IMG/VR virus record: IMGVR_UViG_3300046804_001959 | Source of the DNA: a virus | Taxonomy: Duplodnaviria > Heunggongvirae > Uroviricota > Caudoviricetes | Length of the DNA: 64,000 bases | Direction: 5' to 3' (one strand) | In this document: positions 16,853 to 60,385 of the stretch, in pieces | Position numbering within the stretch: position 1 is the first letter of the stretch | How the letters are laid out: each line of letters opens with the position of its first letter | The notes under the pieces: model-generated | Told to the model about the DNA's origin: nothing | Seen by the model: only the letters and a program-made list of their open reading frames with translations | Database searches by the model: none | Made by a program: the position numbers and the translations under genes

Positions 16853-16876
16853 GTTTTCGAAATAATGTACATGCCT
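16853..16876 (-). promoter_or_regulatory. Phage promoter motif (ttcgaaataaTGTACAtgcc)
   Basis: One instance of the recurring GTGTACA-containing motif, upstream of the HAD phosphatase gene. Confidence 0.5.
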
Positions 16877-17873
16877 AAATGTACTGCGTCGTGCTTTTTG
16901 GCGCTTTTGCTATCGCGAAAACACCGAGTCTGGCTTTGTTCACGAACAGAGAACCAAACTTGGCTCCTCTGTCAGAGGTATATCTGGCAAAGTAGATCGC
17001 CGTAAAGTCTCCGTCAGGAATATCACCGTTTAGTCCTTTGTGTAGAGACGTAATCTCGTACATCATGCCCTTCTTTTGCAGCTTCATGTTACCGAGATGA
17101 AACTCATCTACGTTATGAATACCACGTTGTGATTTTCCATAGTCTTTACCGTAGATAGCTCTGCCAATACCTGTATTATCTTTTACTACTCGTGCAATGG
17201 ATTCTTTTGGGGACAAACCTTCCGGTCTCAGAGCTGCTAGATCTTTTACGAACTGTACAGCATCGTTATTAGTATGATACCATGTGTCATCTGATAGCCC
17301 GCCGTACTGCTGAAAGTGACTTGCCTTCGTTCCGGCCTTATGCGAGATCCATGCAACTTGGTTGCCTTTGATATCGACTATCGAGAAGTCGGCCTTCGGT
17401 GCTCGACCTCCTGGATTCGGAGTACTGATGATTCCGGCACACTCTACGGTTCTACCACCGATCTTTAACTTGATAGAAGGAGTTTTTAGTTTTGCAAGCA
17501 AAGATTCTAGCTCTCCTCTGAACAGAGTCAACTCAGCATCTTCGGCTGCAGTACCAGATCCTTCTCCCTTACCACCAAAATCTGGTGTCTTATAGAAGTC
17601 CTTCGGATAGGTGACTGTCACCTTGACGTTAGTCTGAGCATGCTTGCCAGTAAACGTGGCCTTGAAACCGGATCCTTTCATCATATAATGAATGTCTTTT
17701 GGATCTACAGTCAGGTTGCCGATCTTCTGTTTCTTGTCAAGCTTTACTGGACCTTTAACTGTTCCGAATGGAGATTCATTCTTTATTTTTTCCACAAAGA
17801 TAGCGACGCGAGAACCCCCGCGTTTCGTCAAGTCGTTGTGTGCTAAGATCTTGTACTGAACTTCTTTCTTCAT
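16875..17873 (-). CDS. Hypothetical protein, 332 aa
   Basis: ORF with no recognised motif. Confidence 0.45.
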   Translation of the reverse strand: MKKEVQYKILAHNDLTKRGGSRVAIFVEKIKNESPFGTVKGPVKLDKKQKIGNLTVDPKDIHYMMKGSGFKATFTGKHAQTNVKVTVTYPKDFYKTPDFGGKGEGSGTAAEDAELTLFRGELESLLAKLKTPSIKLKIGGRTVECAGIISTPNPGGRAPKADFSIVDIKGNQVAWISHKAGTKASHFQQYGGLSDDTWYHTNNDAVQFVKDLAALRPEGLSPKESIARVVKDNTGIGRAIYGKDYGKSQRGIHNVDEFHLGNMKLQKKGMMYEITSLHKGLNGDIPDGDFTAIYFARYTSDRGAKFGSLFVNKARLGVFAIAKAPKSTTQYI

Positions 17874-17948
17874 GATCTATTTATCAAACAAAAGAAAACC
17901 GACCCGAGCATTGCTGCTGGGTCGGCCGTGTTACTTCTATTTATATTA

Positions 17949-18542
17949 TTAGGCTGCGACGAACCAGTCTGGTACTGGACGCTTGGTCCATGCCATCTTG
18001 AAACGATCTTGTTTCGTCTGATAGAACTTACGATAAGATCCTACGATATCTCGATAGTCCATACATTCAGGGTTGGCTTTCATGGCCAACGGCTGAGGAG
18101 TCTTTGGACCGATAGGGATATTACGAGGTGGGTTCTTCAGAGCTTCGCGAAGGAGCTTGTCAGTGCCATGAACCTTGCCGTAGCGATACGTGTACTCGTC
18201 GCAGAGTGCTACAAAGTGGACGTAGTGCCAGTTGTAGTTGTTGTTCGACTCTGCAGTCCATACCGTGCAAGGATGATGCATGTGCACAGCTCGATAGAAC
18301 GTTTCTTCGCGTTCGTCAGGAAGAATCCATGCCTTCGACATTGTCTTGCCAGACTTTGAAGGGATACGAGTCTGATGGCCATCGAGCATGCGATGAACCG
18401 TCGAGAGCATCTGAGCCGACTCGACGATCATCTTCACGACATGCTTGTCACACTGCAGCTGAGCTGCCTTGACCGGATCGCTATCAAGAATGAAGAGGTT
18501 CATAGTCCTGCCTTTTGTACCAATTCCTTGTAACCACGCCAT
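17949..18542 (-). CDS. Hypothetical protein. The N-terminus faintly resembles pyrimidine-dimer glycosylases.
   Basis: MNLFILDSDPVKAAQLQCDKHVVKMIVESAQML. 197 aa. Confidence 0.3.
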   Translation of the reverse strand: MAWLQGIGTKGRTMNLFILDSDPVKAAQLQCDKHVVKMIVESAQMLSTVHRMLDGHQTRIPSKSGKTMSKAWILPDEREETFYRAVHMHHPCTVWTAESNNNYNWHYVHFVALCDEYTYRYGKVHGTDKLLREALKNPPRNIPIGPKTPQPLAMKANPECMDYRDIVGSYRKFYQTKQDRFKMAWTKRPVPDWFVAA

Positions 18543-18925
18543 GAAGGATGGATGTGGTCTGGTTGCAACGAGTTTGTTTTGATAACAGTATCTGTATGCT
18601 CTGCGGCGATCTGTTGTACTGCAGCGTTCACTAACGGCTTACAGAACTTTTGATTACAAGGAGGAAGGATCCACACCACATTCTGAGAACGAATGCGATG
18701 ACGGATCTTGTTCAGTTCCTTGTATGTATTTACACCTGAATGGTCGTTCGTGCCAAGGCTGATAACGACCTTCTTGGCCTCGAGTGGAGTATTACCCCAC
18801 TTACGATTCCATTGCCATGTATTCCAACCACCCTTCGAATACGAAACGCATTCTTTGGGTGCAAACATCTTCGTGCCAACACCGATAGAATCACCGATGA
18901 TAAGACACGCCAATAGCATGCTCAT
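18500..18925 (-). CDS. SGNH/GDSL-family hydrolase
   Basis: Block I LIIGDSIG (GDSx) and block V DHIHP (DxxH). 141 aa. Confidence 0.65.
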   Translation of the reverse strand: MSMLLACLIIGDSIGVGTKMFAPKECVSYSKGGWNTWQWNRKWGNTPLEAKKVVISLGTNDHSGVNTYKELNKIRHRIRSQNVVWILPPCNQKFCKPLVNAAVQQIAAEHTDTVIKTNSLQPDHIHPSWRGYKELVQKAGL

Positions 18926-19185
18926 ACTTGTAACCCCGTAACTTGTTTGATGTATTGAGTGGCAATACTCTGTGCCGTCTCGGTAGCACCGACGATGACT
19001 GTATCAGAGATCACCACGTTGTTGTCAGGAGCTGACATCATCCATGGCATCATAGCGAAACCGTTAGGTCCCATGCCAACTGTACGCGGTTTAATAAGTT
19101 CCGTGACTCCGTTCTCTTGTTTAACTCGCGAGATTACTTCCTCGCCAGACATGAGCTTGATAGTATATACTTTATTCTGTTCCAT
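18922..19185 (-). CDS. hypothetical protein
   Basis: 87-aa ORF. Confidence 0.35.
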   Translation of the reverse strand: MEQNKVYTIKLMSGEEVISRVKQENGVTELIKPRTVGMGPNGFAMMPWMMSAPDNNVVISDTVIVGATETAQSIATQYIKQVTGLQV

Positions 19186-19837: not shown

Positions 19838-20078
19838 GACCCATATCCTTCAACTGTTCAGGAGTAGAATACCACTTGAGCAGAAGTTCAAGAGCATCGA
19901 TGTGCTTCTGGATCTGAGCATCATCTGCTTCCTGATCACCCCACACAAACACCCACTTACCAGCTCCGAGGTCCTGCTTCAGAGTTTCCCATGTGTTACG
20001 AAGCTGACCAACGACGATGTTGTCGATGGTTTCCCAATCAAGTTCTACAGAAATCTTAGACATATCAAAGTGCTCCAA
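19827..20078 (-). CDS. hypothetical protein
   Basis: 83-aa ORF. Confidence 0.35.
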   Translation of the reverse strand: MEHFDMSKISVELDWETIDNIVVGQLRNTWETLKQDLGAGKWVFVWGDQEADDAQIQKHIDALELLLKWYSTPEQLKDMGLEP

Positions 20079-21201
20079 AGTAGTTAAAGGTTTGCTGCTT
20101 CTCGCGAGTCAGCTTGAGGCGAGTGCCGTCCTTGGCACGATACTCAAAGGTTCCGGTCTGACCGTTGACGTTGAACAGTTCAGACTGATCGAAGCTGTAA
20201 GTCAGATCGCCTTCGTCATCGTTTCCGAGAATGGCGTTGATAGCATCGCTACCGTTGTCGTTCAGCTCGATAACGATGGTGTTGCAAGCCAGCGGGTTGC
20301 GGTTCCACGTCTTGTTGTACAGATACTTATCTTCGATTTGAGTACCGTCAGCTTCGAACAACTCGACCTTGAACTTGGCCTCGTCACGATTGTCGTACTC
20401 AGGCTTGGCATTCAGCAGCTGCATGACCTGCTGTGGAGTTTCACCGTAGCGATTCATGTCCTCGACCATTGCCTTGAGCATATCGAAGTTGAACTCAGTG
20501 AACAGCGTGGCGATCTTAACGATCTGATCGATATGAGTCTTATCTTCGAGATTATCGTTGCAGTACTCGATGATGAATTCGCCTGTGAGACCCTTGAAGT
20601 CGATCATGTAGAAGATACGACCAGGACGATTGCGCATGTGCTGGTCGATCCGCCATTTGTCGTTGCAAGTCAGGACGAACAGCTTCTTCGAAGGGAACAC
20701 ACCATCGAGCAGAGTCAAGATAGCTTCCTGCTTACGATGATCGTAGACCTTCTCGAACTCGTCGAAGAGAACGATGCAGGGCTGATCGATATCGGCAAGG
20801 AACTTGTTGAAGTTATCTCCAGACCAATCGTTGTTGATGACGATGGTCGGAATATCGTAGTTGTAGCCTAGGATCGAGAGCTGCTTAGCAAGCAGAGTCT
20901 TACCAGAACCCTTCTCGCCAGTCAGCATGACACCGGTGCTGGAAGGACGATCACCGAACGTACGATGAATACGGTCAGCATGCCGCAGACAGTCGCCGTA
21001 GTACTTACTCAGCGGCTTGAACTTGTCAGTTTCCTCGAGATAGAGGTTTCCAAACTGATCCTGCTTGATGATATAGTTACCAGCAGGCAACTTCTCGTGC
21101 AGATCGAGAGCAGCTTCGTCAGAGACGCGATACGTATTACCAGAACGAAGAAAATAAGTCACAGTATCATCCTTTACAGCGTTGATAGACCTTTCTACCA
21201 A
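20065..21201 (-). CDS. P-loop (AAA-type) ATPase
   Basis: Walker A MLTGEKGSGKT and Walker B IVLFDEFE. 378 aa. Confidence 0.6.
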   Translation of the reverse strand: MVERSINAVKDDTVTYFLRSGNTYRVSDEAALDLHEKLPAGNYIIKQDQFGNLYLEETDKFKPLSKYYGDCLRHADRIHRTFGDRPSSTGVMLTGEKGSGKTLLAKQLSILGYNYDIPTIVINNDWSGDNFNKFLADIDQPCIVLFDEFEKVYDHRKQEAILTLLDGVFPSKKLFVLTCNDKWRIDQHMRNRPGRIFYMIDFKGLTGEFIIEYCNDNLEDKTHIDQIVKIATLFTEFNFDMLKAMVEDMNRYGETPQQVMQLLNAKPEYDNRDEAKFKVELFEADGTQIEDKYLYNKTWNRNPLACNTIVIELNDNGSDAINAILGNDDEGDLTYSFDQSELFNVNGQTGTFEYRAKDGTRLKLTREKQQTFNYFGAL

Positions 21202-21223
21202 CTTTCACACTTATTGTACACCC

Positions 21224-22654: not shown

Positions 22655-23067
22655 TCTACAACCTTCTTGTATCGATTAATCGTGCCATCTGGTTCAACTA
22701 CCATGATCTCATCGAGATCCTTGTTCTCGGCCATGACACGATGTTCACCTTCGGCAATCACACGATCGTGTTCACGAAGCTTACGCATCACAGCGTTCGC
22801 TATACCATACTTATTACGATCGGTATCGATAGCCTCTTGTGCTGCATCAGCACATGCACGATACAGTTCGTCAGGAAGTTCCCAACTCATTTCTGTAACG
22901 ACGTTACGGCCGTCTGGCATCTTTCCAAGACCACCGACTCGGCGAAGATATGCTTGGCCACCGTCTACCGAGATGGTTCCACAATGGCAAGTTACGAAGT
23001 CATGACGGTGTTTCGAGACGATGAACTCGCCACACTTATTACAAATCACTGCATTCTGAACGATCAT
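22651..23067 (-). CDS. Zinc-ribbon protein
   Basis: CNKCGEF...CHCG gives four Cys. 138 aa. Confidence 0.4.
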   Translation of the reverse strand: MIVQNAVICNKCGEFIVSKHRHDFVTCHCGTISVDGGQAYLRRVGGLGKMPDGRNVVTEMSWELPDELYRACADAAQEAIDTDRNKYGIANAVMRKLREHDRVIAEGEHRVMAENKDLDEIMVVEPDGTINRYKKVVE

Positions 23068-23294
23068 GCTACGAGCCTTTCATGCACTTGCTTGATGTGC
23101 TTACACTTGTTGTAGAAGTTGAAACCTGGACAATCGCATACCCAACCTTGATCGAGCATCGTCACGTGGTACTGCTTACCCTTACAGTTGACGTAAGGCC
23201 AAGTCAGACCGACCAGATGGTGATCATGAAAATTCACCCCAGGCAAAGCCAGAGGTGTGCGAAAAGCGGAGTATCGAGGTGTATGGTCAATCAT
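23064..23294 (-). CDS. SWIM zinc-finger protein
   Basis: VCDCPGFNFYNKCKHIK matches the SWIM pattern CxCx(n)CxH. Confidence 0.5.
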   Translation of the reverse strand: MIDHTPRYSAFRTPLALPGVNFHDHHLVGLTWPYVNCKGKQYHVTMLDQGWVCDCPGFNFYNKCKHIKQVHERLVA

Positions 23295-23474
23295 GTATTC
23301 ACCTTACTACGAAAAATTAATTTTGTACACCCCCTAAAGCGAGCAGTATCAAAATTATAAAAAGAAAACCGTAGAAGACAAACCGAAAATAAATCTTGGC
23401 GACCTTGAGTCCGATCCAAAGAAAGAAACCCAAGGCCGCCAAGAACGGCGTAGCCAGCAAGAGGAGCAGAAAGC

Positions 23475-23930
23475 TCAGCACCGTCTCTTACCGGTCGCCG
23501 GGTCGGCCGCATCAGACTTGGAAAGGACAACAAGTCCGCCTTTGTTATAGGCTTGGCCGACGATATAATTACTACTGACTTCGAGCTTGGCCCGCTCGTA
23601 AGCCACGTCCTTCGTGAAGTGTGTACCGATCTCGTTCTGAGAAGGGTATTGCTTGCGGTGGTCCGATACCTTGTACTGAGGCATCGCCGTACCACGAAGC
23701 TTAGGCTTGTAGTTGCCTTGACGGTAGTCGATGTACTCGTCGAGAGTCTTGGACTTGATACCGAAACGCTTGTTGCGCTTGCAGTCCTCGCGCCATTCCA
23801 TGCAATACTTATGGAACTGAGCGTCGCTGAGTTTAGACTTACGCTTACTGTGATTGGTGGTAGTGTAAGCAGGACCAAGAAGATGCATTGTCATAGTAAC
23901 CTCCAGATCCTGGTATACACTACCAGCCAA
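23475..23930 (-). CDS. hypothetical protein
   Basis: 151-aa ORF. The overlapping ORF 23291..23878 in another frame is judged spurious. Confidence 0.4.
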   Translation of the reverse strand: MAGSVYQDLEVTMTMHLLGPAYTTTNHSKRKSKLSDAQFHKYCMEWREDCKRNKRFGIKSKTLDEYIDYRQGNYKPKLRGTAMPQYKVSDHRKQYPSQNEIGTHFTKDVAYERAKLEVSSNYIVGQAYNKGGLVVLSKSDAADPATGKRRC

Positions 23931-23943
23931 TTATTGTACATGC

Positions 23944-24759
23944 TTACTTGACGTTGATGATGCCCTTAAAGTCGTAAGGCACAACGACCGAGTGGACCTT
24001 GCCGTTCTTCACACCTTCGGCAATGTCCTGTAGAGCCATCGCAGCCATGTACTGAGTAGCACCACGGTTGGCGTTCAGAGCAGCGATACGCTCGGCTTCG
24101 AGCTTAGCGGTCTGAACTTCAACCTGCTTACGCTTCTGTTCGTTCTGAGCCTGAACGAGAGCGTTAGCCGAGGCAACGATGTTATCAGCAGGCTTGATCG
24201 AACGAACCAGAACCTGCGAGACGTCGATCACACCGTCAAGCTTTTCAGCTGCCAACTGAGCAACGATTTCCTGACGAACCAGGTTTTCGATCTCTGCGCG
24301 GTTATCAGCCATCTTCAACGACTCGTACTTACGAGCAACCTTATAAGCAGCGTTACGACCGAGCTGACGAACATAGTTGTACATCAGCAGCGTGTCACCT
24401 TCTTCGGTATCAGCATGGAAGCCACGGTTCTTCTCGATGTAGATCTCAGCGACAGAGGTCGGGTTGATCGAGTAAATGACCGACAGATCGAAGTCAGCGA
24501 TCGTCGAGTTGTCAGCAGCCAGCGGAGTCATGTCGGTAATGTCAACCGAGACGTCCTTGGTCGGGAACGTCAGCACGTCACCGAAGATAACCTGGTTGAC
24601 AGTACCAGGCTGCAGCTCAGTGGTCTCGATGGTCTTGTCGAACGAGCGACGAACACCGACTTCGCCAGTTTCGATTCGAGTACATGCAGCCGAAGCGATA
24701 GCGAGAGCCGAGACAGCAGCGAGCTTAAGATAACGATTCATTCTAAATAGTCCTTTCAA
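23944..24759 (-). CDS. SPFH/band-7 (prohibitin/HflK-like) lipoprotein
   Basis: Signal peptide plus lipobox (LAIASAAC), a band-7 domain, and a C-terminal coiled coil with an Ala/Gln-rich tail. Confidence 0.6.
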   Translation of the reverse strand: MKGLFRMNRYLKLAAVSALAIASAACTRIETGEVGVRRSFDKTIETTELQPGTVNQVIFGDVLTFPTKDVSVDITDMTPLAADNSTIADFDLSVIYSINPTSVAEIYIEKNRGFHADTEEGDTLLMYNYVRQLGRNAAYKVARKYESLKMADNRAEIENLVRQEIVAQLAAEKLDGVIDVSQVLVRSIKPADNIVASANALVQAQNEQKRKQVEVQTAKLEAERIAALNANRGATQYMAAMALQDIAEGVKNGKVHSVVVPYDFKGIINVK

Positions 24760-24935: not shown

Positions 24936-25580
24936 TTAACCTGGTCCACTTCCATTACCCCAACCATCGTTGGCAGCTGGTTGATATCCAGCATAGTCCC
25001 AACGTTGTTGGATTCTTGCTTCAACTTCATCAAAATGCAACGGTGTAAAGTCTGTCTGTTCGACACACACGCACAAATAACGAGGATCTGGTTCGTCCAT
25101 CGTAAACGGCACTCCATTTGATGCCGTGTACTTTGTTACATTTCGCATGATCTGATTGGCATGCAGGTGACCGTGCACGTTCACACGGAATCGACCAGTC
25201 ACGCAGTCCGGATGCAGAGGGATATGGCTCAGGATGAACTTATCCACGAATACACGAACACCATGGATCTGCTCGAAGCCAACTTCACGATAGTCATCAT
25301 CACGGAAGATATCGTGGTTGCCACGGATCAGGATTTTGCGACCGTTCAGCTTCTTGACCAGATGCAGGTGCTTGCGATTGATCACCACATCACCGAGGAA
25401 GTAGACAGTGTCGTGTTCCTTGACCTTGGCATTGTGACGCTCGATCATAGTCTCGTTCATCTCGTCGTTTGACGTAAACGGTCGCAGCGGACTACCATCA
25501 GCCAGCTTGAACTTTTCCCACGAGTTCGTGTGACCAAAGTGATGGTCAGAGATCACGAACCGATTTACGAACTTTGTCAT
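24936..25580 (-). CDS. Calcineurin-like metallophosphoesterase
   Basis: Motifs DHHFGH, GDVV, GNHD and GHLH. Confidence 0.7.
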   Translation of the reverse strand: MTKFVNRFVISDHHFGHTNSWEKFKLADGSPLRPFTSNDEMNETMIERHNAKVKEHDTVYFLGDVVINRKHLHLVKKLNGRKILIRGNHDIFRDDDYREVGFEQIHGVRVFVDKFILSHIPLHPDCVTGRFRVNVHGHLHANQIMRNVTKYTASNGVPFTMDEPDPRYLCVCVEQTDFTPLHFDEVEARIQQRWDYAGYQPAANDGWGNGSGPG

Positions 25581-25806: not shown

Positions 25807-25869
25807 AACGATCTCCATTCGGTATATTCTTACCCTATACCAAACAGCATAATATGTACACAGTTATTT

Positions 25870-26349
25870 TCACAGAACAGTGATTTTTGTGAAACCTTCT
25901 TCTTCAGTAGGCATCTGTGCACTGTTGACCATCGAAGCCAGAACCGAGTTCGGAATGGTCTTGCCTTGACGAGAGTCGAGACGACGAAACCATTCCTCTT
26001 CGCTAAACTCAACGGTTCCAGGCAGAGGGAACACCACAGCCTCGAACTCGTAGCCGTACGGCTTGAGGTAATCGATGAACTTCTTACGTGACTTTGCAGT
26101 CAAGTTCGTTCGATCGATTACCACATCGTTGCCACGTTCTGCATTCCATTCGAGACGCTTCCACATGATCTTCTCAGCAAGACTGATCGAGTCCTTGAAG
26201 ATCTGATCGTAGGTGAACCCGAACAAGCTTCCCATAAACTCGATGATGTTGTCAGTCGAGATAGGAGCCACCGTTGAGGTCTTGTTCTTACTAAACCACG
26301 TCGACTTTCCCGAGGCAGGAACACCAACAAGAATAGTGCAGTTAGGCAT
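25870..26349 (-). CDS. pnk: Polynucleotide 5-prime-kinase (T4 Pnk kinase-domain-only homologue)
   Basis: ILVGVPASGKSTW (P-loop) and VVIDRTNL...FEAVVF parallel the T4 Pnk N-terminal domain. 159 aa, with no HAD domain. Confidence 0.75.
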   Translation of the reverse strand: MPNCTILVGVPASGKSTWFSKNKTSTVAPISTDNIIEFMGSLFGFTYDQIFKDSISLAEKIMWKRLEWNAERGNDVVIDRTNLTAKSRKKFIDYLKPYGYEFEAVVFPLPGTVEFSEEEWFRRLDSRQGKTIPNSVLASMVNSAQMPTEEEGFTKITVL

Positions 26350-27613
26350 TATACTCTACTCCAGGAAACCAAGCATCGCGAATCGCTTCGTACTTTGCAG
26401 TCTTGGTCAGGTTGTTACGAATCGTATTGCGAACATCAGCCCAATACTTCTCGTTGCTGAGCTCTTCGAAGTTCTTGAAGATCAACGCTCGCATATACTG
26501 ATCATACTTTCCAGCATGTTCGATAGCAAAGGTCTTACGATCGATGTTATCGTTACGTATCCACTGCAACTCGTTAGCCAACACATAGGTTGCATCAGCA
26601 ACCGCAAGATTGAATTGACCTTCAAACTGCGTCAACCGGTCGCGATCCTCAGCAGGCAAATGAGCCTTCACGTCATCGAGCTTCTCATCGAGAATCAACT
26701 CAACGATGTTACGATCCTGAAGGATAGCTTCCTTAGCCTTGTGAATCTGCAGATACCAGTGGCACTTCAGCTTCAGCATATGACCATCGTCGAAACGAAC
26801 AACAAACCCCTCCAGATCCTCGAGGTCGCGAACGTACTCGAGGAACGACTTCATCGTATGATTGTCCATCTGCATGCCGATATCCCACTGACGAACAACA
26901 GGGATACGATACTGAGGAGCTACATCCATCATCCACTTAAACGAACGATACTCTCCGGTATGCATATTACGAGCAGCAGTCAAGATCAATTGATCTTCCT
27001 TATAGTCAAGAACAATACGCTGCTTACGCGAACACCATTCGAAGATCGGAGTGTAGCCGCATTCAATTACCCACTGAGCAAACCGAACGTACTCGGGATT
27101 GCGAGCAACGAACTCTTCGACAGGCTTTGCCACATCGGTAGCACCCATCTTCGTGCCCCAGATCATCTCACCATTCACAATGAACGGAGCGATCATCGAG
27201 CCATCCAGCTTCTCAAGGATAGCATGAGGACGAGACAGATCGACTACATGATCCTGAGTTTCTTCACGTTCGTTGACGTTGAAGAACTTATGGAACGGAC
27301 GACGAAGGATCTCGCCAGTCTCTGAGTCGAAGATGATACCACGACACTCACGACGAATGGCAGCCACACTATCTTCGATATAACGACTACCAATTAGTCC
27401 CGGTTCGGAATGAATAATCTCTTCGCGATAAACATCAGGAAACGTATCAGCCATCATCACGTTGTAGTTGATGACAGTATAGCCTTCCTTCTCAGCCACA
27501 ACGAATTCGTCGCGACCTTCGATTGCAGGCAGCACATCAGAGATGTTGATGATGGTGGGAAATTCGTAGTTCATGATAACCTCAAAAAGAAATGGTTGAA
27601 GCGACCGATCCAC
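26342..27613 (-). CDS. rnlA: RNA ligase 1 (T4 RnlA-like)
   Basis: ECRGIIFD, motif I EKLDGSM, motif IV EGFVVRF, KLK. Co-linear with T4 Rnl1. 423 aa. Confidence 0.8.
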   Translation of the reverse strand: MDRSLQPFLFEVIMNYEFPTIINISDVLPAIEGRDEFVVAEKEGYTVINYNVMMADTFPDVYREEIIHSEPGLIGSRYIEDSVAAIRRECRGIIFDSETGEILRRPFHKFFNVNEREETQDHVVDLSRPHAILEKLDGSMIAPFIVNGEMIWGTKMGATDVAKPVEEFVARNPEYVRFAQWVIECGYTPIFEWCSRKQRIVLDYKEDQLILTAARNMHTGEYRSFKWMMDVAPQYRIPVVRQWDIGMQMDNHTMKSFLEYVRDLEDLEGFVVRFDDGHMLKLKCHWYLQIHKAKEAILQDRNIVELILDEKLDDVKAHLPAEDRDRLTQFEGQFNLAVADATYVLANELQWIRNDNIDRKTFAIEHAGKYDQYMRALIFKNFEELSNEKYWADVRNTIRNNLTKTAKYEAIRDAWFPGVEYNA

Positions 27614-27700
27614 CCTGCAGTCACTAGCAATTTACGAAAGATCACTCGAGATCGCTTCAACCATTATCAGCTTACACTGATTTCGAAATATTGTACACCG

Positions 27701-27932: not shown

Positions 27933-28157
27933 TCAATATCCTTCCTTATGCATTTGAATACCCTTGATGTGCGGCGAGATCTGGCTGGCAGAGTACTGAA
28001 CGCCGTGGATCTCGAAGAACCAACGACCACCGATACCGTTCTCGTTAGCAACCCATTCAAGGCTGAAGAAGTCACGATCGCGAGCAGGGCTAAAACCGAA
28101 GGTCCAAGGACGGCCGGTACGGATTTCGAAAGCGCCGCCAGAAAGAGTGGTAATCAT
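27933..28157 (-). CDS. Hypothetical protein. The start is reassigned to MITTLSGG...
   Basis: The ORF-track start (MMKDTNM) overlaps a TATAAT -10 element. An AAGGA RBS precedes the third Met. Confidence 0.4.
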   Translation of the reverse strand: MITTLSGGAFEIRTGRPWTFGFSPARDRDFFSLEWVANENGIGGRWFFEIHGVQYSASQISPHIKGIQMHKEGY

Positions 28158-28173
28158 GTTTGTGTCCTTCATC

Positions 28174-28222
28174 ATTATAGGTTTACCTTACCAAAGTTTT
28201 GATAAAATGTACACCCTAGAAA
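28174..28222 (-). promoter_or_regulatory. Promoter: GGGTGTACA, 17 nt, TAAGGT, then a downstream TATAAT
   Basis: Near-identical 50-nt copy at 38788..38835. Confidence 0.6.
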
Positions 28223-28479: not shown

Positions 28480-28512
28480 TCACTCTACTCAGTTTTCGAT
28501 ATAATGTACACA
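28480..28512 (-). promoter_or_regulatory. Promoter: TGTACA-N17-TAGAGT upstream of 28216..28458
   Basis: The motif, then an RBS GGAGAAG, then ATG. Confidence 0.55.
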
Positions 28513-31372: not shown

Positions 31373-31394
31373 AAATTCTCCTTGCAATATTGTC

Positions 31395-31432
31395 CAGTAT
31401 AATCGATGTGTGGTTATTTGTACACCGGTAAT
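31395..31432 (-). promoter_or_regulatory. Promoter: TGTACA-N17-TATACT upstream of uvsX
   Basis: The spacing is identical to the other copies. RBS AAGGAGA. Confidence 0.6.
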
Positions 31433-38787: not shown

Positions 38788-38835
38788 ATTATAGGTCCAC
38801 CTTACCAAAGATTTGATAAAATGTACACCCTAAAA
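38788..38835 (-). promoter_or_regulatory. Promoter: GGGTGTACA, 17 nt, TAAGGT, then TATAAT
   Basis: Copy of the element at 28174..28222. Confidence 0.6.
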
Positions 38836-38836
38836 A

Positions 38837-48478: not shown

Positions 48479-48496
48479 TTCTTCGTTTCCTTCTTG

Positions 48497-48546
48497 ATTA
48501 TAGGTTTACCTTATATTGTTTTCGAAATATTGTACACCCTTAAAAC
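48497..48546 (-). promoter_or_regulatory. Promoter: GGGTGTACA-N17-TAAGGT and TATAAT
   Basis: Upstream of 48137..48478. Confidence 0.6.
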
Positions 48547-48548: not shown

Positions 48549-48590
48549 AAAAAAACGCACTCAGAACAAGCCTGAGTGCGTTTTTTTTCG
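48549..48590. terminator. Bidirectional rho-independent terminator
   Basis: A7, then CGCACTCAG...CCTGAGTGCG, then T8. A U-run follows the hairpin on either strand. Downstream of the OMP gene. Confidence 0.65.
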
Positions 48591-50981: not shown

Positions 50982-51056
50982 TGGCTCCTCGAATAGGATT
51001 CGAACCTATGACCGATCGGTTAACAGCCGATTGCTCTACCGCTGAGCTATCGAGGA
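50982..51056 (-). tRNA. tRNA-Asn (anticodon GTT)
   Basis: Hand-folded cloverleaf. Acceptor TCCTCGA/TCGAGGA, D arm GCTC/GAGC, anticodon loop CTGTTAA, T loop TTCGAAT, CCA encoded. Confidence 0.8.
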
Positions 51057-51077
51057 ATGAAACTCTTTATATTCTGA

Positions 51078-51112
51078 ACCTACATTATATATTAAATAAT
51101 GTACATGGTAAA
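51078..51112 (-). promoter_or_regulatory. Promoter: TGTACA-N17-TAGGTT immediately upstream of tRNA-Asn
   Basis: The motif lies about 20 nt 5-prime of the tRNA 5-prime end. Confidence 0.5.
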
Positions 51113-51630: not shown

Positions 51631-51857
51631 TTCAAAACTTTGGGATCTTGTGTCTTGCTTCTCATAGGTGAGATTTAACGGTTCTACCAGCAGTCCAACA
51701 TTCAGCGGGTTCCCTATTCACTTCGCTTAGTCCCAAACTTGGCTGACCCGTGGGACTCGAACCCACCTTAGCGCTTATATCTTTGCATAATACTCCCGAG
51801 CATACAATGCAAAGACCCCGGGGCGCATTCTCACCTGACTTAGGGCCAATAAACTCA

Positions 51858-51959: not shown

Positions 51960-52345
51960 TGCCTATTAACACGCATCTTAAGCGGGACTTACATCAATAC
52001 ATTCATCTAAGAAGTCTTAGATCAGGATGAGATTACTCCTGAGTAATGAGAGTCTTTGAGCCGTACCGAATCCCTTGCGAGGATTGTTAACCCGTTATCC
52101 ACTCGAGCTGTCGCCAGTCATCGAGTATCTCTCAGTGCTGCCTTTTTTAGCGTCTGGCGTTTGACGCGTCACATCATGCTATTCGACCATCAATCTTCCG
52201 CCTGCCTTGCGAGCAGTTCGAAGGCGCTAACCTCCTACGTCTTCAATCCAATCAATCACTTCCGCCTTGCGAGCTTCCATGAACCACATTCCTTTCGGTG
52301 TGGTATTAAGCACCTTTCACATGATGCCGGGACAGTCTTTGCGTT
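51960..52345 (-). ncRNA. Candidate structured ncRNA segment A (ORF-free, between tRNA-Phe and the class I TAG tRNA)
   Basis: No credible ORF. Repeated CTTGCGAG hairpin-loop modules, for example AATCC-CTTGCGA-GGATT and CTGC-CTTGCGA-GCAG. Lies inside the tRNA transcription unit. Confidence 0.4.
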
Positions 52346-52349
52346 TTTA

Positions 52350-52425
52350 TGGCGTGCAAAGTTGGGATCGAACCAACTACCTACATATCCTAAAAATGTT
52401 GCTCTACCAGATGAGCTATTTGCAA
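52350..52425 (-). tRNA. Class I tRNA with anticodon TAG (identity undetermined; U1xC72 mismatch)
   Basis: Hand-folded. D arm GCTC ATCTGGTA GAGC, anticodon arm ACATT-TTTAGGA-TATGT, T arm GTTGG TTCGATC CCAAC. Short variable arm despite a Leu-type anticodon. Confidence 0.5.
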
Positions 52426-52429
52426 AGAA

Positions 52430-52885
52430 CCTACCAAGATGTGCTGTCCCTGTCGCTTCACTACCTTTTGAGTAGCAAAATACAACACACCTCATGTCTT
52501 TCGGCTTGCGGCCTAATTAACCATGCTTCGCGGATCCGGTTATCCCTTCTTCGCTTGCATTACTACATCGCCTTTCCTTGCGAGGTCAGACTCTGTAACT
52601 ACCTATTAGTGTACAGCATTCGTTGACTTGGTTTGTTGCAGCTCGGCCACCACAGCCTCTTGGAACTCAGCGACTGCCTCTGTTCCTATCCTTTCGGACT
52701 ACAACTTCAACTTACTGCCTCACGCCATCCTACTGACGCTGAGTTGCTTTCGACCGAGATCGAGTCAACTCACACTTAGGCTTGTATAGATGGACTCTTG
52801 CGAGCGCAGCTGCGTAGGCTTTACTGCTTTGGCCTCCGTTACCGGAAGTTACCCTAATGACGCTATACCGCCATTCGTTATTTTC
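52430..52885 (-). ncRNA. Candidate structured ncRNA segment B (ORF-free, downstream of the promoter motif at 52888..52926)
   Basis: No credible ORF. Further CTTGCGAG / GCTTGCGGC modules. Preceded by a GTGTACA-N17-TAGAGT promoter. Confidence 0.4.
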
Positions 52886-52887: not shown

Positions 52888-52926
52888 ACTCTATCAAAGA
52901 ATTCAGATAATGTACACCCTTAAAAC
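52888..52926 (-). promoter_or_regulatory. Promoter: TGTACA-N17-TAGAGT firing into ORF-free segment B and the tRNA cluster
   Basis: Same architecture as the other copies. Confidence 0.55.
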
Positions 52927-53886: not shown

Positions 53887-54120
53887 TTAACCGATGTAGA
53901 TCCGATATCCATCAGAATCTACAGGTGCACCGACCGAGCGGCGCTCGATGTAGTACGAATCGATGAATCGATCACCGTCGCGAGTGTACACACCATGGGC
54001 AGTCCGTGCTTCTTCTTCAGAAGCGTACACACCCAGGAGTTCCGAACCTTCGTAGTCGAACTCGCCTAACAGCACAAAAACTTCCATGACAAAATTCCTT
54101 TTCAATCTGTATATTCTCAA
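53887..54120 (-). CDS. hypothetical protein
   Basis: 77-aa ORF between tRNA groups. A promoter motif lies upstream. Confidence 0.4.
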   Translation of the reverse strand: MRIYRLKRNFVMEVFVLLGEFDYEGSELLGVYASEEEARTAHGVYTRDGDRFIDSYYIERRSVGAPVDSDGYRIYIG

Positions 54121-54175
54121 CCTACTACGCAGTAGATAATTTGTACACCCTAAAAACGAACTTTATCGAAAAAAA

Positions 54176-54948: not shown

Positions 54949-55006
54949 CATGAACCAGTATTTATACCCTTCTACACGATCGACGCTTATTTGTACACCT
55001 TTATTT

Positions 55007-56103: not shown

Positions 56104-56319
56104 TCAGCGAGACGTAAACACCGCCACGATAAAAACAACCAAAAAGATAACCGCAGCGATTGCCAGCGGAATCCAGAACGGTGAGAGAACCCACAGCCAC
56201 GACCAGGCAATATAACCAGTAAGCTTGAGAGTGATGAAGATCAGACCAAGCAGGCCGAGGATGGGAAACTGAACGGTAACGTTTTTAGATTCAGACATAA
56301 CGAGCTCCAGTATAATCAT
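56104..56319 (-). CDS. small membrane protein
   Basis: 71 aa with two hydrophobic helices. Confidence 0.35.
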   Translation of the reverse strand: MIILELVMSESKNVTVQFPILGLLGLIFITLKLTGYIAWSWLWVLSPFWIPLAIAAVIFLVVFIVAVFTSR

Positions 56320-56605
56320 AGACGGTGAAGTGAGTGGCGTCAGCGATCAGACAGTCTTGCATCGCACGATGGCGGCCACGAATATAAGTACGGCCGTTAG
56401 TTGCGGGCATTTCGCGACCGATAGCGACGGTACGAGGACCACGATAGCGAAGACGGACACGGACACGTTCAGCGCGATAAGCGGCGAGCACTTGTTCGCG
56501 AAGTTCGATCGGAATCCAATACGCACGGACGGGGTAGTAGTTTTGACGAGTCGCGTCGGCGGGGACGGTGTAGGTCGATTCGATCTGTGCAACGGTAAGA
56601 GTCAC
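56291..56605 (-). CDS. hypothetical protein
   Basis: 104 aa, Arg-rich. Confidence 0.35.
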   Translation of the reverse strand: MTLTVAQIESTYTVPADATRQNYYPVRAYWIPIELREQVLAAYRAERVRVRLRYRGPRTVAIGREMPATNGRTYIRGRHRAMQDCLIADATHFTVYDYTGARYV

Positions 56606-56651
56606 TGATATTTCCTTTCAACTGATAATATCATCTTACTGCAGTTTCGGA

Positions 56652-56981
56652 TTATTGTACACCCCTTGTTTTCGAATTTAGCAAATCTTTTGCTCTTTTT
56701 TTGACCCAATCATCGAAAGGCAAGAAAGCACCTGAGGCACCGGTCCAGTCAGAGAATTCCTTGTCGTAGAATCCTATGACCTTCTTCTGCTTCTGTAGCT
56801 CTACGAGCTCGTCTGCCCATTGTTGCCACTTATGGTCGTCGATGACGTTCTCATCCATCTCGTAGTAGAGATATGAGTGGACCAGCATCTGAATCCTACG
56901 TTGGCGAATCTTTTCAGACAACGTCTGAACCTCGTTCACCATCGGATCATCGTCCAACCACGCAGAGAGGTCGGCTGCCAT
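56652..56981 (-). CDS. hypothetical protein
   Basis: 109-aa ORF. Confidence 0.4.
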   Translation of the reverse strand: MAADLSAWLDDDPMVNEVQTLSEKIRQRRIQMLVHSYLYYEMDENVIDDHKWQQWADELVELQKQKKVIGFYDKEFSDWTGASGAFLPFDDWVKKRAKDLLNSKTRGVQ

Positions 56982-57373
56982 TACTCAGACAACCACTGAG
57001 CAATGGAGCCATACTTCAGGTCGAACTTGTACTCAAGCGCTTCGAGCCCATAGAACTTGAACTCGTCCTCTGAGATGCCTTCAGCATCAGCGATGATCTC
57101 GACTGCACGCTCACGAGTAGAACCGTGTACCATCTGCATGATACCATCCACACGGCACACAAAGTCTTCGAAGTTACGAGCTTGCTGCTCTGCTTCCTGA
57201 GCGTTCTGCTCGTTAAGACGATTGACAAGATACTCGAAGTCCTCATCGAACTCTTTGACCGATTCGAACTTAGCATAACGAGGCCGGCTACCGTACACGT
57301 CCTTGTACAGATCCGAGTAGATATCGCCGTCCTTCGAGTTGGTCAGCGTGTTGATGTCCGAGAGAGTAAGCAT
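56981..57373 (-). CDS. hypothetical protein
   Basis: 130 aa. A GGAGG RBS is embedded in the upstream hairpin. Confidence 0.45.
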   Translation of the reverse strand: MLTLSDINTLTNSKDGDIYSDLYKDVYGSRPRYAKFESVKEFDEDFEYLVNRLNEQNAQEAEQQARNFEDFVCRVDGIMQMVHGSTRERAVEIIADAEGISEDEFKFYGLEALEYKFDLKYGSIAQWLSE

Positions 57374-57378
57374 AAGAA

Positions 57379-57442
57379 AACCTCCGTTGTTACATTCTTA
57401 CCCTACAACGGAGGTTTCTTTTTGTACACCCTAAAAGTGATT
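57379..57442 (-). promoter_or_regulatory. Promoter (TGTACA-N17-TAGGGT) overlapping an 11-bp perfect inverted repeat that contains the RBS
   Basis: AACCTCCGTTG...CAACGGAGGTT followed by TTTCTT, then ATG. Confidence 0.5.
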
Positions 57443-57456: not shown

Positions 57457-57657
57457 TTACACTGCGATGTTGAACGCAGCGAGCTTGGCAACCACTTCGT
57501 CGATAGTATCGAGGATGGTATCAGGGCCACGATCGTCGACTGTACGGATCATGACCTTGCCGCGGTGTTCTACGACACCGATAAGATGGTTAACGTTGAC
57601 CAGGTACTTACCACCTGATTCGTTGATGAACTCTACGAATTGCACTTTGTCGCTCAT
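57457..57657 (-). CDS. hypothetical protein
   Basis: 66-aa ORF upstream of regA. Confidence 0.4.
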   Translation of the reverse strand: MSDKVQFVEFINESGGKYLVNVNHLIGVVEHRGKVMIRTVDDRGPDTILDTIDEVVAKLAAFNIAV

Positions 57658-58049
57658 TTCTTTCTTCCTATGTTATACTTCGTCACGAGGTTCCATTCGT
57701 TCTTTTCTTTGAACGGAAGGATTTTAATCTGGTTCAATGGAGTCTGTGGATCTTCGATCTTTTCTGGCTCAACGACAGCGATCAGTCCCCAATCAGACAG
57801 AAGTTTGGTGATGGTATTCCTACGACCCTTGTCCTCGGACGAGAAGTCAGACGGCTTGCCATCAAGAGCAAACAGTTCCTTGAAGTGTACGATGTAGTAC
57901 TTACCTTGTTTGTGGAGGATATGACAAGATTGGTAAAGTGTCTTGTCCTTGCGTGAAGCTACGCCGATGCGAGTCAGAGTCTCACGGACCTTCAGGAAAT
58001 CGTCTTCTTCGCCCAGCCTCACTTCAACTAAACTTTCGATGATACTCAT
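57654..58049 (-). CDS. regA: Translational repressor RegA
   Basis: FLKVRETLTRIGVASRKDKTLYQSCHILHKQGKYYIVHFKE matches T4 RegA (FLKVKETLTRMGIANNKDKVLYQSCHILQKKGLYYIVHFKE). Confidence 0.85.
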   Translation of the reverse strand: MSIIESLVEVRLGEEDDFLKVRETLTRIGVASRKDKTLYQSCHILHKQGKYYIVHFKELFALDGKPSDFSSEDKGRRNTITKLLSDWGLIAVVEPEKIEDPQTPLNQIKILPFKEKNEWNLVTKYNIGRKK

Positions 58050-58432
58050 GTTTCACCCTTCTGAATCTTTTTCTTTATTATCTTTATCTGTTCAGAGGAG
58101 AGGATATCAAGGGCAGCCTTGGCAGCACGACGATTGTAACCGTAGTACTCTGCAACCGCTTCGAGATCTCCATCCTTTTCTTTCTTCACCCACTTAGCAA
58201 AGCGTTTACTGGGGCGAATAATATTTATCAAAAAGGAGTATTGCAGTTTGTGATCCAGATGATGGTTGCAGTTCATCATGTTGGCTGCATGGATAGTATC
58301 AGCGAAGTATGAGAGAGACTTGTTGGTCAGCCAAGGACTGTAAGTCTTCTCGGCGAGAGCATCATTCTCCGTACCTTTCATCAGGTTCTTCTTCGTCGAG
58401 TTGATCGAGTTCACGAAGTCGAAGGGATTCAT
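58046..58432 (-). CDS. Clamp-loader small subunit (T4 gp62-like)
   Basis: RPSKRFAKWVKKEKDGDLEAVAEYYGYNRR parallels T4 gp62 ([32 protein letters not shown]). Its position between gp44 and regA is also syntenic with T4. Confidence 0.7.
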   Translation of the reverse strand: MNPFDFVNSINSTKKNLMKGTENDALAEKTYSPWLTNKSLSYFADTIHAANMMNCNHHLDHKLQYSFLINIIRPSKRFAKWVKKEKDGDLEAVAEYYGYNRRAAKAALDILSSEQIKIIKKKIQKGET

Positions 58433-58604
58433 CTTTGCGGCCTTTCATAATCACGTCAGCAGACTTGTCAAAGAAGTCTGCACACTTTTCACATATTTCC
58501 AGTGTGTGAAGGCCTTCGACTGTTTCCAACCTCAGTTCATGGAACTGAGCCTTCTTCGGATACTTATCTTCACACACTGGACACTTCTTCTTACCGAAGA
58601 TCAT
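58362..58604 (-). CDS. Zinc-ribbon small protein inserted between the gp44 and gp62 homologues
   Basis: CPVCEDKYPKK...CEKCADFF gives four Cys. 80 aa. Confidence 0.4.
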   Translation of the reverse strand: MIFGKKKCPVCEDKYPKKAQFHELRLETVEGLHTLEICEKCADFFDKSADVIMKGRKDESLRLRELDQLDEEEPDERYGE

Positions 58605-59536
58605 ACGAACTCGCAGTCAGCCATGATCTCGGTGACACATGCCACGAGGTTGATCTCAGGATCGGCAGCGAAAGCGTTCTGATACTGGTACTTCGAGAGG
58701 TGTAGCACCAACTGAGGTACACTACCTTTGCCGATGTAGTCTTCAGCCTTGTCGAAGAACAGACGGAAGAACTCGGTCGGCTCGACATCAGACTCGGCAA
58801 CCCACTTACGGACAGCAGTGAAGTTCTTATCCTTCATGTAACCAATCAGCTTAGCGAGAGCAGAATCCGTGAAGTTCCTAAGAATCCCAGTGTCAATGCT
58901 GCCAGTAGCACTATACCTCTGAAGCTCGTTGATAACACGTCGCCAATCTGGAAAGTGAGTCTTGATGACTTCAGCAACGACCGCCTTTTCATAAGAAACC
59001 GATTCAGCTTCGAGGATTCCACATACCCTCTGAAGAAACTGCTTCGCGAGATTGGGAAGTTCTGACTTAGGAATCTTAAACTTGACAACCGAGCATCGAG
59101 AATGTAGTGGCTCAATAATCCGATCGACAAAATTACAAGTAAGAATGAATCCACAGTTTGCACTGAATTCCTCCATAAAGTTACGCAGCGCTGGCTGAGT
59201 GGACTGAGGGTTGAGATAGTCAGCCTCGTCGAGGATCACCATCTTTCTGCCACCCATCAGAGACACCGAGCTGGCAAACTGAGAGATGTCGTTACGCAGC
59301 ATGTCGATGTTGCCATTCATCGAACCGTTGATAACGATGTAGTCGCATCCAAGCTCTTCACACATGGCTTTTGCCACAGTCGTCTTACCGACGCCTGCAG
59401 TACCAGAGAGAATGAGGTTTGGAATGTTCTTCTGATCGACGAACTGTTGGAAAGTCTTCTTCAGTTCGTCGGGGAGAATAGTGTCAGCAACAGTCTTGGG
59501 ACGATACTTCTCGACCCACAAAAAATCTTCAAGCAT
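58601..59536 (-). CDS. Clamp-loader large subunit (T4 gp44 / RFC-like AAA+)
   Basis: Walker A LILSGTAGVGKTT, Walker B MVILDEADYL, SRC-like motif EPLHSRCSVV. 311 aa. Confidence 0.88.
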   Translation of the reverse strand: MLEDFLWVEKYRPKTVADTILPDELKKTFQQFVDQKNIPNLILSGTAGVGKTTVAKAMCEELGCDYIVINGSMNGNIDMLRNDISQFASSVSLMGGRKMVILDEADYLNPQSTQPALRNFMEEFSANCGFILTCNFVDRIIEPLHSRCSVVKFKIPKSELPNLAKQFLQRVCGILEAESVSYEKAVVAEVIKTHFPDWRRVINELQRYSATGSIDTGILRNFTDSALAKLIGYMKDKNFTAVRKWVAESDVEPTEFFRLFFDKAEDYIGKGSVPQLVLHLSKYQYQNAFAADPEINLVACVTEIMADCEFV

Positions 59537-59659
59537 AATATATCTCCGTCAAAATCAAAATGCCGGTTACGAGGTCCGGCGTCGCCTTTTCGTATCGACC
59601 GCTCCACTCTACGAGTGCCTTTTATACGCTGGCATCTTATGGTGGCCAGTCACCATCCG

Positions 59660-60319
59660 TTAGGCTTCGAACGAAGAGTTGGATTCGACGGCGATCCAGT
59701 ACTCTACGGTTGCACCCTTCCAGTGGCTGAGACCCTTCGACGAGATCGATACGTCGTAGGAACCAGGAATCAGTTTGATGCAGTCAGCACGGAATACCAT
59801 GCGGAAGCGTGCTTCAGTTTCACCAACTATGACGCTGAACGAGTCATTGGTAGTACCACGAGTATCGACTGCCTGCAGAAGGATCTGACCGTCCTTACCG
59901 ACGATGGCGATTTCAGGAAGCTGAGATACGCTCAGTGCCTTCATCACTCGGTTAAGTGCTTCTTCGGTGATCAAGCAGTTGACTTCAGGATTCGGAAGCT
60001 CGATCTCACGATCGGGCGGAACGATGATCAGCGAAGGATCGGTAACAGCATAGTTGAACTTGTTGTTGCCTTCGCTGATGACCACGTGCGAGTCCTTGAC
60101 ATCGATCTCAGGTTCATTGAACAGAGAAAGAGTGCCGATGAACCTCGACAGGTCGTACACTGCAAAACTCTTGTCGAATTCTTGACTGATCGTTGCGCGA
60201 GCAAGAACAGACTTGGTCGACGAGATGGTACGGATTACATTACCCGGCTTGAACATGATGTTCTTGTTAATAGCCGAGAAGTTCTTCAAAATTTGCAGCG
60301 TAGCATTATCTAGTTTCAT
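59660..60319 (-). CDS. Sliding clamp (T4 gp45-like)
   Basis: MKLDNATLQILKNFSAINKNIMFK matches the T4 gp45 N-terminus MKLSKDTTALLKNFATINSGIMLK. 219 aa. Confidence 0.85.
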   Translation of the reverse strand: MKLDNATLQILKNFSAINKNIMFKPGNVIRTISSTKSVLARATISQEFDKSFAVYDLSRFIGTLSLFNEPEIDVKDSHVVISEGNNKFNYAVTDPSLIIVPPDREIELPNPEVNCLITEEALNRVMKALSVSQLPEIAIVGKDGQILLQAVDTRGTTNDSFSVIVGETEARFRMVFRADCIKLIPGSYDVSISSKGLSHWKGATVEYWIAVESNSSFEA

Positions 60320-60349
60320 AATAAAGTCTCCATATGTTCGGAATATTCA

Positions 60350-60385
60350 TCTTACACGTTGTAGTATTAATTGTACACCTTTAAT
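60350..60385 (-). promoter_or_regulatory. Promoter: TGTACA-N17-TAAGAT upstream of the gp45 homologue
   Basis: Motif copy. Confidence 0.5.

Follow-up and report, generated by a model that had tools for sequence, protein, structure and literature searches.

We analysed a 64,000-nt stretch (64 kb; hereafter the window) of the metagenomic virus record IMGVR_UViG_3300046804_001959, which covers part of a phage genome and which, judging by its T4 core genes, comes from an uncultured T4-like myovirus. A promoter-like pattern, made of the hexamer TGTACA and, after a 17-nt spacer (N17), the hexamer TAnnnT, recurs in it ahead of replication genes, small open reading frames (ORFs) and groups of transfer RNA (tRNA) genes. 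We reason that these sites are very probably the early (prereplicative) promoters of this phage, read by the unmodified host RNA polymerase with its primary sigma-70-family factor. On its sequence, the class is a new spelling, specific to this lineage, of the T4-type early promoter already known (similar to the promoter-early stem-loop, or PeSL, cassettes) and not an activator box; most likely, its sole unusual feature is that the -35 box reads TGTACA instead of TTGACA. All motif counts given below refer to the window unless relatives are named.

The pattern TGTACA-N17-TAnnnT was matched 17 times against 0.44 matches expected (0 of 100 shuffled sequences reached 17), and 16 of the 17 matches lie on the minus strand, i.e. 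the coding strand, which carries nearly all genes of the window. When all 4096 hexamers were ranked by their occurrence 17 nt upstream of coding-strand TAnnnT, TGTACA came first (16 vs 0.66 expected), and the longer GTGTACA was found 24 times against 6.75 expected. The spacing is strict, as in 18 sites the spacer between TGTACA and the -10 hexamer measured 16, 17 and 18 nt in 1, 16 and 1 cases, respectively. The placement is equally non-random: maximal ORFs and RNA genes leave only 6.5% of the window uncovered, and 17 of the 49 TGTACA hexamers are found there (binomial P = 6e-9); all sites but the one at 62144 are situated in short gaps between the stop of an upstream gene or tRNA and the start of the next gene, tRNA or RNA. 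Their targets (gp45-44-62-regA, uvsX-gp41, gp61, RNA ligase, small ORFs, three tRNA groups and a GOLLD RNA; Table 1) are all co-oriented with them. A weight matrix derived from the sites (and trained on the same sites that it then scored) gave 16 matches, all of them on the minus strand, and scored nothing in 20 shuffles; a repeat finder independently recovered the promoter families (D6-D9 and D11-D13).

A sequence-only reading of the same DNA had proposed a single conserved promoter class, oriented for minus-strand transcription and preceding both protein genes and tRNA groups, that should be biased to intergenic regions; the class is supported by our data, and the bias is present within the window. 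The 17 core coordinates listed there were right to within 1 nt, all the -10 hexamers named are present, the flanks were described roughly as we recovered them (wTTwAgGG-TGTACA-wwww.Tc.aa), and three copies singled out as extended came back independently as an 86-nt repeat family. The three copies regarded as weak fared differently: the one placed at 25851 exists but lies at 25855 and is a full member (TGTACA-N17-TAGGGT), the one placed at 4272 exists but its true position is 4281 (with a 16-nt spacer and TATAAT), and the one at 28653 (28649) does not belong to the class, since it lacks a -10 hexamer. The suggestion of a dominant early or middle promoter of the phage agrees with our view of a dominant prereplicative (early-type) one. 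Among the sites of the main list, 21215, 23935 and 54992 lack the T at -7 and are weaker.

The 18 sites yielded the consensus wTTwAgGG-TGTACA-wwww.Tc.aa......G-TArr.T-rA.aaTATaA, in which T-12 and A-11 are conserved in 18/18 sites, T-7 in 15/18 and a G at -13 in 14/18. The predicted -1/+1 positions, seven nucleotides past the -10 hexamer, are occupied by a T (12/18) and then an A (12/18). A pyrimidine-purine step is usual at transcription start sites, and we ascribe the conserved downstream AATATA to this T-A step at the predicted start. The possibility that the downstream TATAAT/AATATA is itself the true -10 was rejected, as it lies 28 nt from TGTACA and the T-A step fits a start site instead.

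In the mechanism that we propose, sigma region 4 would contact TGTACA as the -35 hexamer, and sigma region 2 would contact TAnnnT, 17 nt downstream, as the -10 hexamer; the G at -13/-14 would provide an extended -10-like contact, and the T/A-rich tract just upstream would act as an UP-like element. The A of the conserved T-A step, about 7 nt past the -10, would be the transcription start. The many copies that come directly after a terminator hairpin or a tRNA, and that are followed by a conserved 5' untranslated region (5'-UTR) and a ribosome-binding site, would function as terminator-promoter cassettes of the PeSL kind, kept uniform within the genome by exchange between copies.

The decisive evidence for reading TGTACA as a -35 box is comparative and consists of its replacement at orthologous promoters. 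Metagenomic relatives are numerous in IMG/VR, where they form groups with DNA polymerases about 87%, 79%, 72%, 60% and 52% identical to that of the window, and they were fetched as fragments (about 1 Mb of related loci). The TGTACA pattern occurs on the coding strand in every clade with a polymerase at least 71% identical, and in none of the 29 loci of the ~52% (cyanophage-like) clade. The sites with TGTACA, TTGACA and TTGACT numbered 34, 1 and 2 in the 87% clade, 6, 8 and 1 in the 79% clade, 42, 1 and 0 in the 72% clade, and 0, 20 and 13 in the ~52% clade. Across the clades that use TGTACA, the hexamer, the A/T-rich start of the spacer, its 17-nt length and TAnnnT are constant, and the upstream flank varies by clade (AGGG in the window, AAAATAAACA in the 87% clade, AAAATAGTTG or TTTTTTA in the 72% clade).

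Individual promoters can be followed through these relatives. The uvsX promoter of the window, like that of the 87% and 72% clades, reads TGTACA-N17-TATACT; in the 79% clade it reads TTGACA-N17-TATACT, with a spacer that has diverged in sequence and kept its length. The orthologue of the tRNA-Asn promoter in L055 has TTGACA where the window has TGTACA. Some contigs of the 87% clade have TTTACA at the positions orthologous to site 23324 (L022 and L070; the orthologue in L035 has TGTACA) and to site 28505 (L026 and L084, TTTACA-N17-TATAAT). Single contigs of the 79% clade contain both TTGACA and TGTACA sites of otherwise the same layout. We take TGTACA for a -35 box because it is exchangeable with the sigma-70 -35 and with the T4 early -35 at the same distance from the same -10. 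The comparison with promoters of related phages, which the sequence-only reading had recommended, recovered the same class, with the hexamer swapped to TTGACA or TTTACA at orthologous sites.

These swaps bear on the symmetry of the hexamer. TGTACA is a perfect 6-bp palindrome and is conserved more strictly than the -10 hexamer, as might be expected if it were the operator of a dimeric repressor, or a methylation or restriction site, that overlaps the -35 and serves early shut-off. We find this very improbable, since the sequences that substitute for it at orthologous sites (TTGACA and TTTACA) are non-palindromic, no dyad symmetry extends past its six bases (AGGG upstream, A/T only downstream), the upstream flank differs by clade (AGGG, AACA, GTTG or TTTA), a contact with polymerase predicts just such a strict 17-nt distance to the -10, and the intragenic TGTACA copies (about 29) are not depleted.

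They bear likewise on the host. It could be envisaged that the sites are ordinary early promoters, that the primary sigma factor of the host has a different -35 preference, and that the switch from TTGACA to TGTACA reflects a host shift: the use of TGTACA tracks phage clade, the hexamer is absent from every fetched cyanophage-like locus (DNA polymerase ~52% identical), and it is also present in T4-like loci of lower GC content (36-37%; L014 and L018) with a gp32 region dissimilar to the window. Considering that single genomes of the 79% clade hold both TTGACA and TGTACA, and that TTTACA and TGTACA alternate among near-identical relatives, one polymerase probably reads all three hexamers, and we regard the host-shift account as rather doubtful. 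Neither is it favoured by a search for the extended cassette (TTTTAGGGGTGTACA-N15-GGTANNNT) in 185,579 bacterial genomes, which returned two matches in Lachnospiraceae metagenome-assembled genomes, i.e. chance level.

In the two lower-GC loci mentioned above (L014, IMGVR_UViG_2517572140_000004, and L018; GC 36-37%), a gp32-like gene is accompanied by TTTTAGGGG-TGTACA-N17-TATAAT with a TGG extended -10. They show no tblastx similarity to the window, so that the TGTACA promoter reaches a second, more distant T4-like lineage. As proof that the motif is common to unrelated phage families they were rejected, for they represent the gp32 region of another T4-like phage. In L013, a single motif match at the contig end may be due to chance.

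The closest parallel to the class is found in the early promoters of T4. These carry GTTTAC at -36 to -31, with A-rich UP-like tracts, a stretch rich in G and T 5' of -12 and conserved A-11 and T-7; they stand before tRNA genes and novel ORFs, and among T4-related phages they vary at -33 (PMC1524935). On account of extra conserved positions they have been called 'uber' UP/-35/TGn/-10 promoters (PMC2988021). The window sites share with them a hexamer at -35, the 17-nt spacer, TAnnnT with its A-11 and T-7, a G/T-rich stretch 5' of -12, an upstream A/T-rich tract and the extended conservation, and likewise serve small early ORFs, tRNA genes and prereplicative genes. GTGTAC and GTTTAC are one base apart (5/6 positions match; TGTACA and TTGACA agree at 4/6), with G replacing T at -34 in nearly every window copy. 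Unlike in T4, the middle of the -10 is G-rich (TAAGGT, TAGGGT) and not that of TATAAT, the upstream tract is T-rich and then AGGG instead of A-rich, and the window promoters are predicted from sequence.

The layout in turn recalls the PeSL cassettes of T4-type phages, which combine a stem-loop, an AT-rich tract, a sigma-70-like N17 promoter and a ribosome-binding site, and whose -35 spellings are lineage-specific (TTGACA, TTTACW, TTGYVH; PMC4122927). As in the RB49/phi1, T4/PST and KVP40/nt-1 cassettes (PMC4122927), the window shows a composite layout, many repeats before unrelated small ORFs and a lineage-specific -35: a stem-loop precedes the promoter, a ribosome-binding site and start follow it, and near-identical copies stand before unrelated ORFs. 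A hairpin with a T-run was found directly upstream of sites 28505, 48531, 57423 and 51100; in contrast to PeSL, not every window copy has an upstream stem-loop, and several come after a tRNA instead. The nearest sequenced relatives (T4-like cyanophages and pelagimyophages) have no MotA and use sigma-70-like early and T4-type late promoters, and the cyanophage-like loci that we fetched have TTGACA or TTGACT with N17. For pelagimyophages and Melnitz, the published accounts employed generic sigma-70 predictors only and report no such motif (PMC7029224, PMC9004378), and the literature searched contained nothing relevant on TGTACA as a phage promoter element.

The repeat family of 86 nt (D8; 28137-28222, 38751-38836 and 48460-48545) stands before three unrelated ORFs. 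In these extended copies, the ATGs that overlap TATAAT are probably part of the 5'-UTR, because an AAGGA ribosome-binding site and a second ATG come after them. The cassette had no match among cultured phages (best E = 3).

The sequence-only reading had preferred a site for a phage-encoded activator, by analogy with the MotA box of T4, over a sigma-70 -35 element. Broadly stated, a factor encoded by the phage or delivered with the virion would replace or retarget sigma region 4 at middle-type promoters, in a MotA/AsiA-like manner. The MotA-dependent middle promoters of T4 do pair a phage-specific upstream element with a TAnnnT -10, and they serve homologous genes (uvsX, the gene 45 cluster and tRNAs; PMC2988021); moreover, the six bases of TGTACA are invariant over more than 100 distinct sites from several clades, they mismatch the sigma-70 consensus at -34 and -33, and the joint presence of TTGACA and TGTACA sites on 79%-clade contigs could in principle mark two classes. 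The geometry, however, is that of a -35 box: the MotA box, (a/t)(a/t)TGCTT(t/c)a, has its centre at -30, with 11-13 bp between it and the -10, and depends on both MotA and AsiA (PMC2988021, PMC1524935), whereas TGTACA sits at -35 with a strict 17-nt spacer, and an orthologous promoter has TGTACA, TTGACA or TTTACA depending on the relative, with all else unchanged.

Further observations make such an activator unlikely in our view. The 64 kb contain no other sigma-70-type class that could express it first (canonical E. coli-type promoters were not enriched, with 28 found vs 21 expected), and the MotA box pattern TGCTT-N12-15-TAnnnT is itself not enriched (11 found vs 7.7 expected, no strand bias). 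As to the MotA/AsiA-like gene pair whose presence the activator view would suggest, tblastn with the T4 proteins gave a best E of 1.4 across the window and the ~1 Mb of related loci, and no MotA, AsiA, Alt or sigma families were among the PHROG matches listed for the window (25 of 30 families in one scan), from which three genes (38837-39454, 44064-45648) had been left out. Nor was a phage RNA polymerase or sigma family among the profile matches listed for the 64 kb.

Several points weigh against early promoters read by the unmodified host polymerase. TGTACA departs from TTGACA at -34 and -33, which are the most important -35 positions for E. coli sigma-70. The near-total invariance of TGTACA exceeds that of a usual -35 box, which gives room for an altered host sigma or a helper factor. 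Canonical TTGACA-N17-TAnnnT has 0 sites in the window, and with it there is no within-genome comparison. The window represents 64 kb only, so that the rest of the genome could contain the gene for a factor or a further class of early promoters. Lastly, sequence cannot decide between early and middle timing, and the start sites are predicted.

It is conceivable (we would not put much weight on it) that TGTACA marks a changed recognition, either by a host sigma region 4.2 preferring T-G-T-A-C-A or by a small phage protein, possibly from the virion, that retunes sigma region 4. If so, the turnover from TTGACA to TGTACA across sister clades would be an instance of co-evolution between promoter and reader during a host shift.

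The spacing of start codons also counts in favour of the preferred reading, as T4-type early promoters; we followed it in 146 distinct sites from the window and relatives by taking the first long ORF after the -10. No start codon fell 0-5 nt after the -10 (0/146 sites), a spike was seen at exactly 6 nt (16/146), and the main mode was at 23-29 nt, behind a ribosome-binding site; this is the spacing predicted for a transcription start 7 nt after TAnnnT. In several of the sites at 6 nt, the ATG belongs to the repeated ATGATG cassette of the 5'-UTR and is not a true start. No alternative start is available to at least five unrelated genes whose start codon lies 6 nt after the -10 (sites 16866 and 23324 provide two of them). 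They show no ribosome-binding site (16834-16848 and 23292-23306 on the minus strand of the window; also in L035, L064 and L014/L018), and their orthologues keep the arrangement. Such genes, among them the HAD-phosphatase-like one (16231-16836), look like candidates for leaderless messenger RNAs.

A further arrangement was noticed at 57365-57425 (minus strand), where a predicted hairpin is formed between the spacer (GAAACCUCCGUUG) and the ribosome-binding region downstream of it (CAACGGAGGUUUU), with the -10 and the predicted start in its loop (-22.1 kcal/mol, z = -5.3). The spacer of site 25855 is also complementary to the downstream ribosome-binding region, and similar promoter-embedded hairpins were seen there and in L011 (4173), L037 (1913) and L020 (2129). 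In RNA that reads through from upstream the ribosome-binding site would be masked, and in RNA started at the promoter it would not, which recalls some T4 late genes. As a general feature of the class the embedded hairpin was rejected (stems of at least 8 bp in 23% of sites vs 16% of shuffles); long stems (at least 11 bp) occur in about 5 of 151 sites and are an occasional feature.

The T4 late motif TATAAATA forms a class separate from the TGTACA promoters. It has 8 sites in the window, all on the minus strand, against 1.0 expected, and several copies lie in gaps upstream of genes (e.g., Hsp20, 36171-36704, and 11435-13036). The copy at 54959-54966 comes 2 nt after a weak TGTACA-class -10, and site 54992 is the only one with both. 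The idea that the TGTACA class itself represents T4 late promoters (TATAAATA at -10, no -35) was rejected, since the class has a -35 and a TAnnnT -10.

Although no new mechanism is revealed, the sites provide a ready-made, high-confidence promoter model for a widespread group of uncultured T4-like phages (with relatives in many IMG/VR samples and contigs abundant in lakes and estuaries), which can be used for delimiting operons and for flagging candidate leaderless genes. The model also indicates that the tRNA groups and the GOLLD RNA are probably transcribed from early-type promoters, and the clean exchange of TTGACA, TTTACA and TGTACA for one another at orthologous sites amounts to a small natural experiment on -35 recognition.

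Table 1. Sites of the TGTACA class, T4 late motifs and genes identified by profile in the window (gene products according to PHROG/Pfam profiles).
Feature	Positions	Strand	TGTACA start	Context
TGTACA-N16-TATAAT (variant)	4259..4286	-	4281	upstream of gp61 primase gene; beyond the range of the sequence-only reading
TGTACA-N17-TAGACT	16843..16871	-	16866	in 38-nt gap after stop of 16875-17873; before HAD-phosphatase-like gene 16231-16836
TGTACA-N17-TAGAAA (weaker)	21192..21220	-	21215	upstream of ATPase gene 20065-21201
TGTACA-N17-TAAGGT	23301..23329	-	23324	before 76-aa gene 23064-23294
TGTACA-N17-TATACC (weaker)	23912..23940	-	23935	gap after 23944-24759
TGTACA-N17-TAGGGT	25832..25860	-	25855	upstream of small ORF and phosphoesterase gene 24936-25580
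TGTACA-N17-TAAGCT	27669..27697	-	27692	upstream of RNA ligase gene
TGTACA-N17-TAAGGT	28185..28213	-	28208	reference copy of 86-nt cassette; upstream of small ORF 27933-28175
TGTACA-N17-TAGAGT	28482..28510	-	28505	directly after GC hairpin and T7 run; upstream of 80-aa ORF 28216-28458
TGTACA-N17-TATACT	31396..31424	-	31419	upstream of uvsX and gp41 helicase
TGTACA-N17-TAAGGT	38799..38827	-	38822	extended cassette copy; upstream of 158-aa gene 38313-38789
TGTACA-N17-TAAGGT	48508..48536	-	48531	extended cassette copy directly after 17-bp terminator hairpin (48549-48587); upstream of 48137-48478
TGTACA-N17-TAGGTT	51077..51105	-	51100	predicted start 14 nt upstream of tRNA-Asn (50982-51056)
TGTACA-N17-TAGAGT	52888..52916	-	52911	directly after tRNA-Ala; ~390 nt upstream of GOLLD RNA match (52024-52493)
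TGTACA-N17-TAGGTT	54119..54147	-	54142	after tRNA-Leu; upstream of small ORF (ATG at 54087) and tRNA group 53878-52946
TGTACA-N17-TAGAAG (weaker)	54969..54997	-	54992	13 nt upstream of tRNA-Asp and tRNA group 54949-54177
TGTACA-N17-TAAGAT	56633..56661	-	56656	upstream of small ORFs 56291-56605, then tRNAs 55718-55467
TGTACA-N17-TAGGGT	57400..57428	-	57423	after terminator (57460-57481); upstream of 56981-57373
TGTACA-N17-TAAGAT	60349..60377	-	60372	upstream of gp45, gp44, gp62, regA
TGTACA-N17-TAGAAT	62121..62149	-	62144	strict match inside coding region 61780-62811; without flank features, membership doubtful
Late motif TATAAATA	13098, 17938, 28657, 36756, 46730, 49640, 54959, 61620	-		
thyX	1530-2234			
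gp61 primase	3216-4235	-		
denV	4294-4836			
RNA ligase	26342-27613	-		
gp41 helicase	28893-30308	-		
uvsX	30305-31387	-		
Family-B DNA polymerase gp43	32291-34798			
regA	57654-58049	-		
gp62	58046-58432	-		
gp44	58601-59536	-		
gp45	59660-60319	-		

The gene order gp45-44-62-regA is that of T4, and 26 tRNA genes are found between 50982 and 55718. The best cultured match of the polymerase was to T4-like cyanophages (~51% identical). At the DNA level, no close cultured phage was recovered, as 10 kb compared with 50,697 phage records by megablast matched at tRNA genes only; an exact look-up of the gp45 protein returned nothing on record.

The tRNA island also harbours a full-length match to the GOLLD RNA (RF02032; 52024-52493, minus strand; 171 bits vs a gathering score of 150), in which a tRNA-Leu(tag) is nested (52350-52425). 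The distance of ~390 nt from the TGTACA promoter at 52888-52916 to this match would fit the variable 5' half of GOLLD, and the arrangement of promoter and GOLLD is kept in a relative (L020, 3611-4082, 179 bits). GOLLD is known from phages near tRNA islands, at times with tRNAs in its linker (PMC12286853). A manA RNA motif (RF01745; 50442-50614, minus strand; 62.5 bits vs a gathering score of 55.2) is located immediately 5' of a peroxiredoxin-like gene (49833-50474), whose annotated start it overlaps, and is also present in L004 (1239-1408) and L020 (5770-5941). The relative L008 encodes a permuted transfer-messenger RNA (RF04321; 90 bits) at 7323-7592. At 51735-51764, a tRNA-like 3' end (GGGACTCGAACCC with flanking acceptor-like sequence), where ARAGORN and Rfam call no tRNA, may represent a tRNA that has degenerated or been interrupted.

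The genes at 39461-45648 (minus strand) form a signalling and curli-like module. It contains a CHASE2 adenylate/guanylate cyclase (39461-41608), a gene that the window has in common with Pelagibacter phage HTVC008M and Methylophilales phage Melnitz (~40% identical to the cyclases of both), a FecR-domain protein (42959-44110) and, at 44064-45648, an apparent curlin-repeat protein and a CsgG-like lipoprotein (both putative). The seemingly sole convincing plus-strand gene of the window (34873-36045), located between the DNA polymerase and Hsp20 genes, encodes a putative cell-wall hydrolase with peptidase-M15-like and lysozyme/chitinase-like parts.

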